A stretch of 64,000 nucleotides of DNA from an uncultured Nitrospiraceae bacterium (GTDB lineage: Bacteria; Nitrospirota; Nitrospiria; Nitrospirales; Nitrospiraceae), in assembly GCA_963846575.1 (NCBI GenBank), contig CAWJWJ010000001.1, positions 1 to 64,000 of the forward strand, given 5' to 3'. The position numbers are program-made. Numbering within the stretch: position 1 is the stretch's first letter; each line of letters starts with the position of its first letter. This document shows positions 17,001 to 26,000 of the stretch, one piece after another.

Positions 17001-20000
17001 AGGGCAACCGGCATCAGCTTCGGAATGACGATGTTTTTCGTCGGCCCATCCAAACTTTTCAGAAAGCCTGCGTTGATCACGTTAAAGAAGTACAACAATC
17101 CAATCCAGGTGATGCCGGCCAGGAAATGGATCCACCGGACGATGAGGCCAAACCAGTCGGCCTCACCCGCCCCCACACCAGTCATACCTAAATACACAAC
17201 TATCAATCCGACAGAGAGCGCAAAACCTGCACCCAATGTCTGATACGGATCCTCAAGGAATTTCATAGGTCCCCCAGCTAACGGTTTACTGCAAGCCACG
17301 TTGTGTACTGTAGGCTATAGAGCCTTGTCAAGCGGCCTGCCTGTCACGGGACATCCGGAGTCGTCAGGCAGTCAGCAGACGGTCGACAACCCGGCACAAA
17401 TCTCGCACCGCTTCGGCAGACGCCTGCAGTGCGGTCCGCTCCTCGACAGTCAGGTCATATTCAACAATCGATTCTCCCCCCTTATGACCCAACCTGACAG
17501 GCACTCCGACAATGACGTCCTTCAACCCGTATTCGCCTTCACAGAGCATCGCGCAAGGCACCACGCGCTGCTGGTCATTGATAATTGCCTCCACCATATC
17601 AACCGCAGAGGCCGAAGGCGCATAAAAGGCGCTTCCCGTCTTGAGCAATCCCACAATTTCAGCGCCTCCGTCTTGGGTGCGCTTGATCAGTTCCGCCAGT
17701 CGTTTTGGCGCCAGCCGTTCGCTGATCGGCGCTCCTGCCACGGTTGTCTGCCTGACCAGCGGTACCATGGTGTCCCCATGCCCCCCCAGGACCATGGCGT
17801 GCACATCCGTCCCCGGCACCTTCAGCTCTTCCGCGACGAATGACCGTAGCCGTGCCGTATCAAGTACGCCGGCCATACCGAGCACCCGGGATTTCGGCAA
17901 GCCGCTGACCTGCAGTGCCACATGCACCATCGCGTCCAACGGATTCGTCACCAGGATCAGGATGACGCTCGGGGAACGCGCGACCAGTTCCTTCACAACC
18001 GTCTGCACAATTTTGGCATTCGTCACCAGGAGTTCATCCCGACTCATCCCGGGTTTTCTAGGGATGCCCGACGTAATGACAGCGATGGATGACCCTGCCG
18101 TCTCTTCATAGCCGTTCGTGCCGACGACGCACGTACTATACCCACAGACAGGCCCGGCCTGTGTGATATCCAACGCCTTCCCTTGCGGGATCCCTGGCAC
18201 AATGTCGACCAGCACGACATCATAGGCATTCTTCTCAGCCAACCGTTGCGCGACGGTCCCCCCGACGTTGCCAGCGCCCACTACCGTAATTTTCGGTCGC
18301 CCCATTTCAACTACTCCTCATCAGGCATGCTGAGTGACCATCAAACGTAAGAAGCGGCAACCGCTTTCCGCTCCCAACGCTTCACAACTCACCTGTCATG
18401 CGTGGTCATGTCCGGTCCATCCCCCGACCTTGAAATTGATCGTGCAGACGAAATTATCACCGTCGTAAAAATTCACTTTGATCTTTTTCTTGCCATAATT
18501 CGCCGCGAGAAAATCTTCTGGCGTGTCGACCAAGCCCTGATATCCGCCGGCGGGATATTCACCCAGCTCGTGAAACACCACGATCATGCCGGCTTTGACT
18601 TCCTCAAGAATCTTGGCGGTACAACGCGGGTAAATCTCCCAAAACTTGGCATCGATCTCGGTTCGCGTCGGTTCGGGCCGTTCCTCGCCCGGCTTGAAGT
18701 CGCGATTCGCAAACTTGGCCTGCCGCCGGACATAGGGATATTGGTGGCCGGTAAACAATTTGTAAAGCCATGGCGGCACGGCCGGTCGTGAAGGCTGTTC
18801 ACTCATTGTGCGTCTGCTCCAGTACTGTGAGGGTATCGGTTACGACCATTCAGGCGGTCAGCCGATGGTAAATCCCCGGGAGCTTCTCCGGCAACCCCTC
18901 TACCCGATCAATCACGACATATCGCACATCGCCGTACATCCGACGCAAATAGGGGTCCGCCTGCTTGTCGATGGTGATACACACAGGCTCAATGCCACGG
19001 GCGCGGGCTTCACGCAACGCCATGCGCGTATCTTCCAGCGAATATTCGTCCTTATAACCGTCATCTAGCGGGCGGCCGTCGCTGAGGATCACCAGGATCC
19101 TGGTCTTTGTCTGACGGGCAAGGAGCTTGTTCGTCGCATGCCGGATAGCGGCGCCGTCGCGGTTCTGCTGTAGCGGCACCATTCCACCCAATTTGGCCGC
19201 GGCGCGACCGGTCACGATTTCGTCAAACGCCTTCACGATCACAAAATCCACCTGATGGCGTCCTTGCCCTGAATACCCGTAGACGGCAAATTGGTCTCCG
19301 ATTGCCGTGAGCGCCTCACAGAGAAGAACCAGGCCCTCTTTTTCGATATCGATGATCCGCCGACCCTGATCGACTTGCCGACTGGTAGACCCGCTGAGAT
19401 CCACCAAAAACGCCGCGGCAACGTCGCGCTCTCGCTTTTCACGCCGTATGTACAACCGCTCCGAGGGTTCAATACCCGCGGCGAGATCGGCCAACCGACC
19501 GATGACCGCATCCATGTCCAGCTCTTCCCCATCAAGTTGGCCGGTCACACGTCGCAGCCCTGGGGGGCGAAGGCTTTCGAAATAGCGTCGCAGCAATCTC
19601 ACTGCCCCCCCCTGTGCCGACAGAGTTTGCTCGACGAAATCAGAGGGTCCCTCAGTGGCTTCACGCTCCACCACGCGGCACCAGTTCGTCCGATAATCCT
19701 GTATGGCAGCGTCCCACTCATGATACCGAACGACCCTTGCGGCTCCGGCTTGTATGTCCTCCGGCCGCGGCCCTTCGCCGTCCACCGCCAGAACCTCCTC
19801 GACGAGCGAGGGCTGACGACGACCGGGAGCCAGCACATCCTGAGAGGCTCCTTGCGAACGAGCGGTTCCGCCACGAGACGCCCCTCCGGAATCACCGGCC
19901 AGACCGGCACCGTTCTCCCCATCACCTTGAGCAGAAGCCGATGTCTGATCAGCAGCACGTTCGGTCCGGTCGCGGACCAGATCGGGATCCATTTTCCCGC

Positions 20001-23000: not shown

Positions 23001-26000
23001 CTTCGGTACAGCTGAGATGGGATCTGAGTACTTATTCCAGCATCTGCCGAAGGAAATCGGCGACGCGAGCAATCTCCAGGCCGTGATCATCATGGACCTT
23101 ATGGGTGGCGTGCAATGGGCTCCGATACAAGACGCGATTTTTGCCACCGGCGCCGAAAAAAGTCCTGAGTTATACCAGCGATTCCGTAAGGCGGTCGTGC
23201 CGCGACTCATGGTCCTTCCGGTTGGAATCCACCTCGTCGAGGAAATTCCTGAACAGGGCCATAAAGCCTTCAGCGACTACGACGTCTTTCGCAATCATGG
23301 GCTGCCGTTTCTCTTTCTCTCCGCCGGGCGCACCCCGCGGTACCACACACCGGGAGACGTCGCCAGCACCTTGCATTACGACCGCATGGCCGCAACCGTC
23401 GAATGGCTACGCCGCCTCTTCACCCTGATAGATCAGGATGAGGCACCCTACAGCTTTGATGCACGTCGTGTGGAGTTCGCTGATGAGGTCGCGTCATTCC
23501 GGAAGATCGTCGATCTGGCCTCACAGGACCCGACGCTCATTCCCGGCACCTCGCGATGGTCGCTGAAGAAATTGAAGACGGATGCGGAGTGGCTGCAGAA
23601 CGTCGACAGCTCAGTGCCGACACCTCAAAAACTGGATCGGTTGGAACGGATTTCGATACGCGTGCAGTGCCTGTTGGCCGATTACTCGGGCTGCTTTACC
23701 TTCTGACCCTTCTCTACAGCACACCCGTTCCGTGACAGGTTCATTCATTGCCAACCGGCAGTTTCGTATCCCTTTTCCTTGAGGCAGCGTTCGACAAAAG
23801 ATGCGTAGTCCTGCTGCGGCTCCAACGGCCTATAGGTGCCGGCAAGTAGACCCAGCACCCCGCCGACCGCTCCTCCCGCCGCCGCACCGATTGCCATACC
23901 CGTCGGGCCACCGATCAGCCCGGTAGACGCTCCCACGGCCGCCCCGCCGACGACGCCCAACGCGATGCCGGCACCCGCATTCCCACTGCGGTTCGTCCCA
24001 TGCCTGAGCCCGGCGCGCTCAGCCTTCACTCCGCACACTGCCACCTCTTGCGCGGCCATCTCCTTGCCATACAGTTGCAGTTTTGCATTGGACCTGAGAA
24101 CGGGCTCAGGCCCCGCACAGGCTACCAGGCCGACCGCGAGCAGCAGCATGATCACCGAGGAGCGAACAGCCCTCACTCCCGACCCTCTCTGAATGAGCAG
24201 CAGTTGAGGGCATCGTGGGGAATTGAACCTGCGCGCTGCGTTATTGCCATCCGGCCACCTCGTATCCCTTTTCCTGCAGACAGCGATTCACAAGATTCAC
24301 GTAGGCCTCGCTCGGCTGCTGTTGTCCCGATGTGAAGAGGCCGCTCAGGAATCCCCACAGAGCACCGCTGATAGCTCCTACCGCCGCGCCGATTCCGGAG
24401 CCGCCCGTGATGGCGCCGCCCACTGCTCCTCCCGCGGCTCCCACTCCGGCCCCGACGGCGGTGCTGGTGGCGACTTGCGCGCCTTTCCCGGTCCCCTCTC
24501 TGGCTCCGGCCACCTCGGCCTGCTCCCGGCACAGGCTGAGATCCTCCTCAGCCTGTGCCGCCCCGGCTTGCTCGTAGTGCTGGTTCGGCTGGAAAATCGG
24601 CTGGGGACCCGTACAGCCTGACGTGGCCATGGCCAGAGCCATCGTCACGGCTAGGAATTCTGTGTTGCGCGGTGATGCCATCAATCAACTTTCGTCATTC
24701 GGCCTGGAGTCGTTGGAGCACTGCTCCGGCTGACTGTCCGCTCACACATCCACGTTTCTTTCTACTACCCATCCCGCTCACTATCTGTGCCGCGTTGAGC
24801 GCCACGCCGCATTGTCTGGCGAGGAACCGACATAACTCGACATCGGCGGCACCGTCAGCCGGAGGTGCGGACGCTCGAAGCTTGAGCGCGCCACCATGGA
24901 TACCGACGGATGCCGACGCATTCGGTGCGGGTAGCCTGGTTGCACATGCACTGAGATGACGACTCCCCCCGACATTGCGCCAATGACTGATTTCCATGCT
25001 GTGGCTGTGGTCACCCGGTCGGATTGGAGCGGGTCACGGAATTTCCTCTAGCAGTCTGACTCTGGTGGCGAATGGCTGCGCCGCTCAGAACATCGCCTTC
25101 ACGACCTCGACGATGCTGCGCAGCATGTCCGGATCGTCAGTGATCGGGCGAGCAATGGCGACTTCACAGGCTCGGTCCGGCGGGACACCCTGTTTGATCA
25201 ACAGGGCCGCATAGATCAGCAGCCTGGTACTGACACCCTCTTCCAACCCGTGATTCTTGAGGTTTCTGACCTTCTGAGCGATCTTGACGAGCCGCTGCGC
25301 AATATCAGGGCTCACCCCGGCTTCGTGCGCCACGACCCGCCCCTCGATGTCCGGGAGAGGATACTCGAACTCAATCGCCATGAACCGCTGCTTCGTGCTC
25401 TGCTTGAGGTCTTTCAGAATACTCTGATATCCCGGGTTATACGAAATGACCAGCATGAAGTCATCGACCGCTTCGATGACTTGGCCTTTCTTTTCGAGGG
25501 GTAGTAGCCGCCGGTCGTCGCTCAGCGGATGAATGATGACCGTCGTATCTTTGCGGGCCTCGACGATTTCATCCAGGTACACGATGGCCCCATGTTTGAC
25601 CCCGAGGGTCAACGGACCATCCATCCAGAAAGTCTCTTGCCCCTTTAACAAATAACGCCCGACAAGATCGGACGCGGTGAGGTCTTCGTGGCAGGCCACC
25701 GTGATAAGCGGGCGACCCAGACGATGGGCCATGTGTTGCACGAACCGCGTTTTACCGCAACCGGTCGGCCCTTTCAGCATCACCGGCATGCGAGTCTGCG
25801 CGGCAATCGTAAACAGACCGATCTCACCGCGAACCTCGGCATAGAACGGTTCGCTCGCGATACGATAGCGATCGATGTCCAGTTCCTGCCCTTTCAAAAC
25901 CGAAGTCACACGCCCCTCGTTCATGGCCGGTACCCCCGCGTTGCCTATCATGAGCCGCGGTCGTCACGATAAACGGAAATGAACCGGAAGTTCAAGCCGC

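Follow-up and report, generated by a model that had tools for sequence, protein, structure and literature searches.

An orphan NorQ/NorD-type ATPase and VWA adaptor pair and a candidate third component conserved in class Nitrospiria

Results

The window is a stretch of 64,000 nucleotides from the genome of a nitrite-oxidising Nitrospira (4.2 Mb, 2 contigs, completeness 99.93%). It encodes a CbbQ/NorQ-type ATPase (Q), a NorD/CbbO-like adaptor (D) and, just downstream of D, a small soluble protein that we call hyp136 (Table 1). The Q and D ORFs lie where the survey's finding had placed them, and its Pfam rows were reproduced exactly (AAA_5 at 56-190 and CbbQ_C at 203-286 of Q; VWA at 825-984 of D). 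Five ORFs, not four as first counted, separate the two genes (FTR-B-like, M28, two Gly-zipper and DUF167). The genome has a single CbbQ_C match.

Table 1. Features of the Q/D locus, in window positions
Feature	Position	Strand	Description and basis
Malate dehydrogenase	17364..18305	-	Pfam; next gene after hyp136, context
hyp136	18396..18806	-	136-aa soluble protein, 43 nt downstream of D; synteny and phyletic profile
D	18850..21885	-	NorD/CbbO-like VWA adaptor, 1011 aa
D residues 716-1011, VWA domain	18850..19740	-	Alignments to solved NorD, Foldseek, column counts
D residues 601-715, linker	19741..20085	-	Low-complexity, predicted disordered
D residues 335-600, zincin-like domain	20086..20883	-	Domain model, fold and profile matches, motif tables
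D residues 1-334, alpha-solenoid	20884..21885	-	AF2 model, consensus of 64 relatives, profile matches
Promoter-like site	21919..21947	-	TTTACA-17-TACAAT, 10/12, upstream of D
FTR catalytic-subunit-like gene	22019..22462	+	CPC...CxC...CHC; Pfam FeThRed_B 4.4e-22; divergent from D
M28 peptidase	22342-23706	+	Pfam; between D and Q
Gly-zipper lipoprotein-like	23745-24176	-	Pfam; between D and Q
Gly-zipper_OmpA	24241-24684	-	Pfam; between D and Q
DUF167/YggU	24695-24997	-	Pfam; between D and Q
Q	25085..25951	-	CbbQ/NorQ-type MoxR AAA+ ATPase, 288 aa; Pfam, PDB matches and residue alignments

At the level of sequence, Q is confirmed as a CbbQ/NorQ-class MoxR AAA+ motor. It matches the solved CsoCbbQ (5c3c, E 1.5e-111), AfCbbQ2 (6l1q, E 6.5e-104) and two solved NorQ proteins (9qhd, E 3e-100, and 9qh4, E 2.1e-98), and its alignments to solved CbbQ and NorQ run without gaps over 256-264 residues. 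Walker A (GPTGCGKT, residues 61-68), Walker B (D127-E128) and the helix-2-insert motif (G98-R-x-L-L-x4-T107) are present. The cysteine pair C65/C87 is the equivalent of the redox pair C46/C68 in P. denitrificans NorQ; passages of PMC13036017 describe both this pair and the helix-2-insert motif.

The NorD/CbbO-like end attributed to D was borne out, as residues 706-1011 match the VWA domains of two solved NorD proteins (9qhd_G, E 2.8e-48; 9qh6_G, E 7.7e-44) and the Foldseek match to 9qh6_G reaches E 8.8e-17 and a TM of 0.78. The domain comprises a finger (about residues 770-816), a variant MIDAS and a conserved C-terminal tail. The MIDAS reads D829-x-S831-x-S833 ... N908-R-D910 ... D936. In the alignment of 64 relatives, position 908 is N in 36 rows and T in 26. 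The threonine that NorD requires here (its T534V change inactivates NorD, PMC9976466) is replaced by Asn throughout the Nitrospiria branch, with an Asp two residues on. This change across the whole branch is new, and because of it the D MIDAS may operate in another way or have lost its function. Every motif required to couple Q and D is intact (alignments and column counts).

The first 720 residues of D had been described as having no known family. This holds for Pfam and NCBIfam, but relations to known proteins do exist. Residues 1-334 are modelled by AF2 as an all-helical repeat with pLDDT mostly >90, carry a recurring motif in the consensus of 64 relatives (W-x3-G...(E/A)YF-x2-SP-x2-L) and match designed helical-repeat, Sel1 and symplekin chains in profile comparison. 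This predicted alpha-solenoid of about 335 residues has no counterpart in NorD and CobT. The domain that follows (residues 335-600; domain model pLDDT 92.9) contains the motifs H425-E-A-G-H429-L-E431 and E485-D-A-R488, so that an HExxH...E signature is intact, and N415, E485, R488, Y497 and G499 are invariant in the 64 relatives. Its best VIA-align rows are zincin peptidases with Z 5.1-6.6, which is middling (Z < 8) and, as the tool cautions, may reflect a common arrangement. The best Foldseek match is selecase (E 0.24), and M48 and minigluzincin peptidases dominate the fold matches. When the D profile built from the 64 relatives was compared with PDB, it matched the CobT N-domain (E 7.8e-7) and, weakly, the NorD N-domain (12-13 bits, independent E-values 0.19-0.27). 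Homology of the zincin-like domain with the NorD and CobT N-domains is thus weakly suggested; in those two proteins the N-domain docks on the ATPase's small AAA+ subdomain (for NorD, passages of PMC13036017). The linker has pLDDT <50 at residues 595-615 and 643-690, and passages of the same source indicate that the NorD linker at the matching place is unresolved in the structure. The identity proposed here for the N-terminus of D, a modelled alpha-solenoid followed by a zincin-like domain, is new.

The D N-terminus was found in all 118 sampled genomes of the order, our genome included, in 132 of the 134 sampled class-Nitrospiria genomes, and in 809 representative clusters at E<=0.001. Across the class the gene is kept at 27-83% identity, and no D match among those listed for the sampled genomes contains a stop. 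Within Nitrospiraceae, a stretch of 1-7 kb with genes on the opposite strand separates Q from D, and in family f2 the distance is 600 kb, so co-regulation is not guaranteed. All three genes are represented in the N. moscoviensis transcripts (Table_1.XLSX, PMC6606698): the D orthologue NITMOv2_4068 (mean 354, rank 661), cbbQ NITMOv2_4073 (mean 134, rank 1781) and the hyp136 orthologue NITMOv2_4067 (mean 124, rank 1876).

No match to hyp136 was found in Pfam, NCBIfam or PDB. The gene adjoins D in 71/73 Nitrospiraceae loci, and its profile matched 130 of 401 Nitrospirota genomes, every one in class Nitrospiria (130/134 within the class against 0/267 outside). Deep Nitrospiria families have contiguous Q-D-hyp136 operons, tight in G321 (gaps of 7 and 22 nt) and G351 (a 4-nt overlap), and in G258 the hyp136 start codon overlaps the D stop. 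In family f2, hyp136 still adjoins D despite the distant Q, whereas in families f4, f6 and f9 its homologues are present but apart from D. The two class genomes that lack D, G124 and G377, likewise lack Q and hyp136. The hyp136 profile found no match in two D-positive genomes, G283 and G353 (96% and 94% complete). We propose hyp136 as a new, third component that would act together with Q and D.

It is extremely improbable that Q and D are functionless remnants of a nor or cbb operon that has disappeared. Their known clients are missing and the two genes are no longer neighbours in Nitrospiraceae, but the frames and all coupling motifs are intact. Conservation across the whole class, the absence of stops, the transcript ranks of D and Q and the tight operons retained in deep branches also speak against decay.

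D could instead be an enzyme itself. Its HExxH...E site would then make the complex either a processing peptidase assisted by ATP or a donor that holds metal, and hyp136 might be its substrate, its inhibitor or a carrier of the metal. The Nitrospiria-type alignment rows retain HExxH, E431 and E485, a full gluzincin signature as in the window protein, and this agrees with the peptidases among the fold matches. H133 of hyp136 is conserved in at least 90% of sequences, within a His/Asp/Glu tail that is often rich in His and acidic residues (e.g. G-H-D-H-A). Deep-branch homologues of hyp136, however, lack the His-rich tail. Across the wider D family, one branch has Y/F in place of the HExxH histidines and the Chloroflexota branch has Gln in place of the catalytic Glu, yet the domain and its five invariant residues are retained. 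This suggests that the domain serves structure or docking, and docking is also the role of the putatively homologous domains in NorD and CobT. We regard a catalytic D as improbable.

The other neighbours follow narrower patterns. The FTR-like gene divergently adjoins D in 62/64 loci, but it is missing in the three deep Nitrospiria genomes with Q/D that were inspected and present in one without Q/D, a phyletic pattern that argues against a general module partner and for an order-level conserved neighbour. In 43 loci Q lies within the flank; DUF167 was found in 42 of them, Gly-zipper in 40 and M28 in 26, and none of these genes lies inside the Q-D-hyp136 operons of G321 and G351. The genes separating Q and D in Nitrospiraceae (22342..24997) are lineage-specific. 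Malate dehydrogenase comes next after hyp136 in 67/69 loci, and also in family f2. The promoter-like site upstream of D is weak, since the scan yielded no more sites than chance (6 against 5.7 expected).

The survey's finding that the genome has no haem-copper oxidase/NorB-family gene stands: COX1 gave 0 matches even at E<=1, with 9 of 14 control genomes matching. That the missing NorB had gone without comment is outdated, as a passage of PMC13032477 explicitly reports Nitrospira with norQ/norD but without norB/norC. A single RuBisCO-like gene was likewise recovered (RuBisCO_large, a weak match of 77 bits over model positions 5-171, C2:1361570-1362064).

Possible clients are this RuBisCO-like protein, NXR and a NOR that has diverged beyond detection. 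RuBisCO is a known target of CbbQO (PMC4660213), NxrAB-like genes are also present in the genome, and a very divergent NOR may escape PF00115 alone. The RuBisCO-like gene and the fetched NxrAB-like pair are, however, on the other contig, unlinked to Q/D. In five other Nitrospiria genomes with Q/D (98-100% complete), RuBisCO_large had no match, an NxrA-like gene was found in only two, and COX1 matched in only two, both times fused cbb3-like oxidases. Clients of this group, two of which had been put forward in the survey, are thus very unlikely. The phyletic tests argue against the RuBisCO-like protein, NXR and haem-copper oxidases as general partners, and the client is probably none of cNOR, RuBisCO, the RuBisCO-like protein and NXR.

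The survey had favoured the cytochrome bd-like proteins as client. Its eight Cyt_bd_oxida_I genes resolve into two canonical genes (464 and 463 bits), five bd-like genes (59-79 bits, matching only the first ~250 model positions) and a 21.8-bit fragment with a stop. In this proposal, Q/D and hyp136 would open the bd-like apo-protein for non-haem metal entry, as NorQD does for FeB of cNOR, a haem-copper-family enzyme whose non-haem metal it loads (PMC9976466 and PMC13036017, in the passages concerned). Passages of PMC6606698 state that Nitrospira lacks canonical haem-copper oxidases and propose that one bd-like protein, whose putative haem b and Cu sites resemble theirs, is a terminal oxidase of a new kind. 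The distribution is compatible, with 2-4 bd-like genes in 5/5 other Nitrospiria genomes with Q/D and both bd-like genes and the D family spanning nearly the whole class. Outside the class the two overlap in 8 genomes against ~3.6 expected (26 and 37 of 267), uncorrected for kinship. Against this, 29 of the 37 bd-positive genomes outside the class lack the D family, G124 and G377 carry bd-like genes without Q, D or hyp136, and CbbQ_C is found in 0/5 bd-like-positive genomes of families f30 and f20. Conversely, a bd-like gene is found in 0/5 Chloroflexota genomes that carry the long-D family, and G177 (Nitrospiraceae, 99% complete) has Q, D and hyp136 yet no match to the bd-like query at E<=1e-15. 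No locus examined links bd-like genes to Q/D. The proposal is weakened, and we consider it doubtful.

Another explanation is a general housekeeping remodeller that, like Rea1/midasin, would act on a ribonucleoprotein, for example, or on some other large assembly in the cytoplasm, and would not be a dedicated metalloenzyme chaperone. Q matches midasin AAA modules (E 6e-60) and the D VWA matches the Rea1 and MDN1 MIDAS domains (E 4e-7 to 8e-6), but this likeness is common to all CbbQ/NorQ-NorD/CbbO systems and so is not specific to the Nitrospira Q/D. In other lineages the pair is flanked by housekeeping genes, among which no enzyme recurs: 73 Chloroflexota loci include CoaE (44) and NUDIX (30), and also SelA, MgsA and CinA; a gammaproteobacterium has the gene order Rho, Q, D; and in G351 the hyp136 homologue shares 13 nt with the gene for Der, a ribosome-assembly GTPase. 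Such neighbourhoods are weak evidence. Within the class the module is core, and in steady-state culture of N. moscoviensis the D transcript ranks high, but the module is missing in two class members and most other Nitrospirota. This explanation seems improbable to us.

Discussion

From the gene content, motifs, fold predictions and phyletic and synteny patterns shown here, we infer that the Q motor, the D VWA adaptor and hyp136 probably constitute a working three-gene module ancestral to class Nitrospiria. By homology it would work like NorQD and CbbQO. Q would assemble as a hexamer, the finger of the D VWA domain would occupy its pore, and the C-terminal tail of D would rest on the post-sensor-1 loops. 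The zincin-like domain, as the putative counterpart of the NorD/CobT N-domain, may dock on one small AAA+ subdomain, and ATP-driven rotation of the VWA domain against it would then strain the bound client. The alpha-solenoid of 335 residues, the HExxH...E metal site, the rewired MIDAS and hyp136 may be special client-facing equipment.

The intact motifs, the presence in every order genome sampled and the N. moscoviensis transcripts support the survey's suggestion that the Q/D machine is maintained and that its client is neither cNOR nor carboxylating RuBisCO. In this Nitrospira, an orphan chaperone pair of the kind that services NOR and RuBisCO is kept where both those enzymes are missing.

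Q, the AAA+ ATPase, and its VWA adaptor are encoded without their textbook clients

The reading frames of Q, the CbbQ/NorQ-type MoxR ATPase, and of D, the NorD/CbbO-like VWA adaptor, were found where the survey had placed them and carry the Pfam domains it had reported. Q aligns without gaps to the solved CsoCbbQ (5c3c), AfCbbQ2 (6l1q) and NorQ (9qhd and 9qh4) with E-values between 1.5e-111 and 2.1e-98, and its best PDB scores are to the two CbbQ structures (1.5e-111 for 5c3c, 6.5e-104 for 6l1q; 3e-100 for NorQ). We identified the Walker A motif GPTGCGKT (residues 61-68), the Walker B pair D127-E128 and the helix-2-insert motif GRxLLxxxxT (G98-R-x-L-L-x4-T107), which, according to PMC13036017, touches the finger of NorD in the solved structure. 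By its sequence domains and motifs, Q is a member of the CbbQ/NorQ (CGN) group of MoxR AAA+ ATPases. Cysteines C65 and C87 correspond in the alignment to C46 and C68 of Paracoccus denitrificans NorQ, whose disulphide is described as inhibitory; since the same paper notes that the pair is kept in some MoxR proteins (PMC13036017), its presence here is not a new finding.

Positions of the features discussed in this part
Feature	Position	Strand	Description
Rep_trans gene	28-495		filamentous-phage-like region 28-5380, at the contig start
Zot-family assembly ATPase	2812-3492		same region
HTH_17 protein	5042-5380		same region
Adenylosuccinate synthetase, second ORF	6656-6967	minus	Pfam positions 342-416
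Adenylosuccinate synthetase, first ORF	6931-7977	minus	Pfam positions 1-342
NuoF-like gene	15128-16429	minus	stand-alone
Urate_ox_N-like gene	16679-17299	minus	206-aa membrane protein
MDH	17364-18305	minus	malate dehydrogenase
hyp136	18396-18806	minus	136 aa; 43 nt downstream of D
D	18850-21885	minus	1011 aa; last ~300 residues match the solved NorD VWA
Q	25085-25951	minus	288 aa; Pfam AAA_5 1.8e-33, CbbQ_C 2.6e-34

The genome (4.2 Mb in two contigs, 99.93% complete) has a single CbbQ_C gene. The two absences that the survey had claimed were borne out: PF00115, the COX1/NorB family, has no match at E ≤ 1, with positive controls in nine of 14 genomes, and no form I or form II RuBisCO was detected, the only RuBisCO_large match being a partial one of 77 bits on the other contig. 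The survey's further statement that the literature had passed over the missing NorB is out of date. A passage in PMC13032477 explicitly remarks on the absent norB/norC, so the orphan status of the pair is already published in passing and the surprise is limited. PMC7193043 offers nothing beyond tallies of nor genes by taxon, and among titles and abstract openings in the literature we found no functional account of a Nitrospira CbbQ or MoxR protein. What is new here is the dissection of the adaptor's domains, its MIDAS variant, the third gene and the phyletic exclusion of several proposed clients.

Domain anatomy of the long adaptor

Over residues 706-1011, D can be aligned with residues 337-643 of NorD (E 2.8e-48 and 7.7e-44), and the alignment takes in both the finger region and the ...IY-x-x-L tail. 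In Foldseek the VWA domain matches 9qh6_G with a TM-score of 0.78, and the model of the whole protein retrieves VWA domains only. The AlphaFold2 model, built on 64 relatives (pLDDT 82, pTM 0.72), falls into four parts. Residues 1-334 are predicted to form an all-helical repeat, or solenoid, whose motif recurs in the family consensus; over this stretch the profile of the family matches designed helical-repeat, Sel1 and symplekin chains. They are followed by a compact domain (335-600; pLDDT 92.9 when modelled alone), a linker of low model confidence (~600-715) and the VWA domain with finger and conserved tail (716-1011).

A fold search with residues 335-600 against 48,161 chains, independent of Foldseek, ranked zincin peptidases first, with Z-scores of 6.6 for ZMPSTE24, 5.9 for BepA, 5.6 for Ste24p, 5.4 for jannalysin, 5.3 for a "zincin-like metalloprotease", 5.3 for selecase and 5.1 for abylysin, all below the secure level, as scores under 8 may reflect a common arrangement according to the tool's own warning. 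HtpX, BlaR1, aminopeptidases, YbeY and Wss1 occupy lower rows, and the best Foldseek rows are selecase and abylysin (E 0.24-0.28). The helix predicted to bear the active site carries an HExxH motif (H425-E-A-G-H429-L-E431), and a later one has E485-D-A-R488. Residues N415, E485, R488, Y497 and G499 do not vary among the 64 relatives. Given the consistent list of matches and the HExxH motif, a zincin-like domain is the best reading of the modelled region, at middling scores.

The survey had described the N-terminal 720 residues as belonging to no family. We likewise found no Pfam or NCBIfam model for them, but the profile of the long-D family (relatives of D with solenoid, zincin-like domain and VWA) matches solved CobT at residues 99-285 (E 7.8e-7) and, weakly, the N-domains of two solved NorD proteins at residues 35-120 (12.4 and 12.9 bits) and in the Y-P-G-L-R region at 155-200 (3 bits); Pfam CobT_C matches D at 8.4e-6. 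These similarities suggest a common origin, in a zincin-like fold, for the N-domains of NorD, CobT and the long-D family. Such a description is not given in the consulted parts of the structural papers on NorD and CobT, and a term search of the CobST preprint (bioRxiv 10.64898/2026.10.09.757910) returned no occurrence of "zincin", "peptidase" or "HExxH". According to these sources, the homologous N-domains (about 240 residues in NorD) bind the small AAA+ subdomain of NorQ (PMC13036017) and the small AAA+ domain of CobS (same preprint) in the solved complexes; by analogy, residues 335-600 would dock on Q. NorD has no solenoid, and the 334 residues of this repeat may therefore be a part added for a different client.

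The MIDAS of D keeps D829-x-S831-x-S833 and D936 and departs from the canonical DxSxS-T-D at the threonine, T534 of PdNorD, where D has Asn908 followed by R909 and D910. According to a table in PMC9976466, T534V in PdNorD leaves 2% activity. Among the 64 relatives, position 908 is N in 36, accompanied by "N-R-D", and T in 26, accompanied by "T-R-M/L".

A third gene, hyp136

No relatives of the protein encoded directly downstream of D, hyp136, were found in Pfam, NCBIfam or PDB (best PDB E-value of its profile 0.86), and the ESM Atlas returned only unnamed Nitrospirota clusters and no structure. It is more conserved than D, with 90-97% versus 77-84% identity among close relatives and 72-79% versus ~55% at distant Nitrospiraceae loci. 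Its tail is often rich in His, Asp and Glu, and H133 is at least 90% conserved. Of 73 Nitrospiraceae loci whose flank is long enough, 71 have hyp136 as the next same-strand gene after D. The arrangement is tighter still in deep families: Q, 7 nt, D, 22 nt and hyp136 in genome G321, a 4-nt overlap of Q and D followed by hyp136 in G351, and a hyp136 ATG overlapping the D stop codon in G258. Where Q lies 600 kb away (G088, family f2), D, hyp136 and MDH are still contiguous. In G351, der, which encodes a GTPase of ribosome assembly, shares 13 nt with the hyp136 homologue.

Of 401 sampled Nitrospirota genomes, the hyp136 profile matched 130. All of these belong to class Nitrospiria; the 267 genomes from outside that class gave no match. 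Two class members without D, G124 (98% complete) and G377 (97%), also lack hyp136 and any CbbQ_C gene. There was no hyp136 match in G283 and G353, although Q and D are present, and in families f4, f6 and f9 the homologue is on a different contig from D. As the co-occurrence of the three genes falls within one clade, it is inflated by kinship; the link is better supported by the two genomes that lack all three and by the way the genes are arranged in operons. On balance we favour the view that hyp136 belongs to the Q/D machine.

Surroundings of the locus and transcription

The Nitrospiraceae gene order is hybrid kinase, Q, DUF167, two Gly-zipper genes, an M28 peptidase in some, an FTR-B-like gene on the opposite strand, D, hyp136 and MDH, followed by the Urate_ox_N-like membrane protein and the NuoF-like protein. 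In 43 of 48 loci, Q and D share a strand, with Q 1-7 kb upstream; of these 43, DUF167 is present in 42, a Gly-zipper gene in 40 and M28 in 26. Inserted genes have pulled Q and D apart in Nitrospiraceae, unlike in other Q/D pairs without a known client, and none of them occurs in the deep-branch operons. The FTR-B-like gene divergently adjoins D in 62 of 64 loci; together with the published NorQ disulphide, this adjacency had raised the idea of a redox activator of Q acting via C65/C87. We rejected it as a general feature: three genomes with Q/D (G321, G351 and G108) have no FeThRed_B, whereas G377 has it in spite of lacking Q/D.

The orthologues of D, hyp136, MDH, the FTR-B-like gene and Q are transcribed in the chemostat transcriptome of N. 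moscoviensis, for which Table_1.XLSX of PMC6606698 prints means and ranks of 354 and 661 for the VWA protein (NITMOv2_4068, 3021 nt), 124 and 1876 for hyp136 (NITMOv2_4067, 414 nt), 234 and 1062 for mdh (NITMOv2_4066), 185 and 1366 for the FTR catalytic subunit (NITMOv2_4069) and 134 and 1781 for cbbQ (NITMOv2_4073). The system is real, conserved and, in the N. moscoviensis orthologues, transcribed.

The NuoF-like and Urate_ox_N-like genes are kept downstream of MDH in all Nitrospiraceae loci examined. The former has a 44.5%-identical paralogue on the same contig (C1:1188995-1190164), and the N. moscoviensis orthologue of the latter is at transcript rank 637 (PMC6606698). Elsewhere in the window, several ORFs of no family lie between the phage-like genes at the contig start, and the essential adenylosuccinate synthetase gene is split into two ORFs (6656-7977) by a frameshift or an assembly error.

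Distribution of D and its relatives in other lineages

An exhaustive search with the N-terminal 720 residues of D gave 809 representative clusters at E ≤ 0.001, of which 75 pass the stricter limit of 1e-30. A word-indexed search gave 798 proteins, of which the best 120 are all about 1000 aa and, where named, from Nitrospirota. By the relatives of D in public genomes the organism is a Nitrospira, its D being ~80% identical to that of Ca. N. defluvii. In the phyletic sample of 401 Nitrospirota genomes (118 in the order, 16 others in the class and 267 outside the class), this N-terminus is present in 158: all 118 of the order (the genome itself, 75/75 of family f1, 40/40 of f2 and 2/2 of f3), 14 of the 16 other Nitrospiria and, with weak scores, 26 of the 267.

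A distant relative of D (P0175, 25% identical) led to 80 loci, one of them actinobacterial and six gammaproteobacterial. The other 73 (L081-L153), labelled Chloroflexota, Dehalococcoidia or SAR202 except for one "uncultured bacterium", have CbbQ-like, CoaE, NUDIX, SelA, MgsA and CinA genes as neighbours. Their Dehalococcoidia and SAR202 proteins belong to the long-D family, with solenoid and predicted zincin-like domain at 25-30% identity, and a coaE-Q-D arrangement is present in Dehalococcoidia. The six gammaproteobacterial versions are ~700 aa and miss most of the solenoid. Among the neighbourhoods examined outside Nitrospirota, we found no enzyme recurring beside D. At five loci of Sedimenticola, Thiolapillus and Chromatiaceae (L155-L159), the ~700-aa D directly follows ubiD and an HD-domain (MASE11) gene, or rho and a CbbQ-like gene, with no RuBisCO or nor genes adjoining. 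On the 46.6-kb plasmid NZ_CP064358.1 of the actinobacterium Miltoncostaea oceani (L161, 10494-14204), a CbbQ-like gene is followed by VWA proteins of 362 and 548 aa that jointly represent residues 315-1010 of D, so that the long-D gene is split in two here; ilvB and thiolase genes adjoin.

Three types can be distinguished in the long-D family: the Nitrospiria type with HExxH and N-R-D, which includes D itself, a degenerate type with (Y/F)-Q-x-G-(Y/F) and N-R-D, and a Chloroflexota type with H-Q-x-x-H and T-R-M. HExxH, the N-R-D MIDAS and hyp136 are combined in the Nitrospiria branch alone.

Candidate clients

We compared the proposed clients across five other class Nitrospiria genomes with Q/D, drawn from five families and all 98-100% complete. 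The RuBisCO-like protein, which the survey had named as a possible client, drops out as a universal one, with RuBisCO_large in none of the five. NXR, also among its proposals, fares similarly: queried with the 1155-aa DMSO-reductase type II alpha subunit of the genome, an NxrA-like gene was found in two, both of order Nitrospirales. A haem-copper oxidase is likewise rejected as a universal client, COX1 being present in two, both times as a fused cbb3-like CcoN/O unlinked to Q/D. Deep Nitrospiria genomes with such a fused gene (L162 in G321, L163 in G351, L174 and L175) still have Q, D and hyp136 as a tight operon. No NxrA-like gene was found in them at E ≤ 1e-10, and they are for this reason probably not nitrite oxidisers.

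The survey's favoured clients were the unusual cytochrome bd-like (CydA-like) proteins. The eight Cyt_bd_oxida_I genes that it had counted are two canonical genes, five bd-like genes and one fragment with a stop. That the machine serves the bd-like oxidases agrees with their presence in all five Nitrospiria genomes with Q/D. A bd-like query matches 170 of the 401 Nitrospirota genomes; outside the class, the 37 bd-positive and 26 D-positive genomes overlap in eight of 267, compared with ~3.6 expected if independent; four of the eight are of one family. However, G124 and G377 keep bd-like genes without Q, D or hyp136, none of five bd-positive genomes of families f30 and f20 has a CbbQ_C gene, and none of five Chloroflexota carriers of the long-D family has a bd-like gene. 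The pattern in the Nitrospiria branch thus allows for bd-like oxidases as the client, but elsewhere these do not require Q/D, and we consider them an unlikely client.

Comparison with known systems and a proposed mechanism

NorQ/NorD of P. denitrificans and Jhaorihella thermophila inserts FeB into cNOR (PDB 9qh4-9qhg; passages of PMC9976466 and PMC13036017), and Q is colinear with NorQ (E 3e-100), sharing its Walker motifs, helix-2 insert and cysteine pair. D follows the order of NorD (N-domain, disordered linker, VWA with finger, conserved C-terminal tail), and its N-domain core is weakly homologous. D departs from NorD (~640 aa) by an additional solenoid of 335 aa, by an intact HExxH...E site where the aligned place in NorD has none, and by Asn908 instead of T534. 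Its genome has no COX1/NorB-family match, whereas norB and norC usually share an operon with norQD. The third gene is hyp136 and not norE or norF as in the Paracoccus operon norCBQDEF. For Paracoccus, the deletion label norQDEF is used in PMC9976466.

The CbbQ/CbbO RuBisCO activase of Acidithiobacillus ferrooxidans and Halothiobacillus neapolitanus (5c3c, 6l1q) provides the best PDB scores for Q, and CbbO (~770 aa), compared by its description in PMC4660213 only, resembles D in its long, poorly conserved ring-binding N-region and C-terminal VWA, and differs in its "perfect" MIDAS. The pair also differs from CbbQ/CbbO in the lack of a form I/II RuBisCO in the genome, the gene for which is usually a neighbour of cbbQO. 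The CobS/CobT motor of aerobic cobaltochelatase (PDB 9uka) is linked to D by the match of the long-D profile to CobT. Q/D was rejected as CobS/CobT itself: Q scores 27 bits to solved CobS, and both proteins reach 24.3 bits on the NCBIfam equivalogs, where the cut-offs are 558 (CobS) and 759 (CobT). Rea1/midasin, a single giant eukaryotic polypeptide of ribosome biogenesis, strips assembly factors via UBL domains. Its AAA_5 modules are similar to Q (E 6e-60), and it has a MIDAS/VWA domain with a finger loop as well (Foldseek 6qt8, E 4e-7).

Q is complete and D has every element that couples NorD to NorQ. By analogy, Q/D is probably a machine that works like NorQD, CbbQO and CobST. If the solved complexes are a guide, one D would bind per Q hexamer, with its finger in the Q pore, its tail on the post-sensor-1 loops and its zincin-like domain on the small subdomain. 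ATP-driven stepping would twist the VWA domain against the docked N-domain and thereby strain a client held by the solenoid and the variant MIDAS. hyp136 might act as a co-adaptor, as a carrier by means of its His/Asp/Glu-rich tail, or as part of the client.

Significance

In soils, waters and treatment plants, the principal nitrite oxidisers are Nitrospira. A bolder proposal would place Q-D-hyp136 among the CbbQ/NorQ-type machines as a third class by function, of the same age as class Nitrospiria. The adaptor would have retained a functional zincin-type metal site beside its altered MIDAS, and the machine would load or repair the non-haem metal of the haem-copper-like, bd-like terminal oxidases with which these organisms respire. 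We rate it as improbable; if true, the module would supply the assembly factor that is missing for a respiratory enzyme so far unexplained. For metagenome tables, norQ and norD should not be scored as "NO-reduction genes". The strictly co-occurring hyp136 and an adaptor with an extra solenoid and a candidate metal site are handles for a client search, and G124 and G377, near-complete yet without the whole module, are natural controls for comparative subtraction. A core, transcribed Q/D pair without either textbook client shows that chaperones of this class must serve at least one further target.
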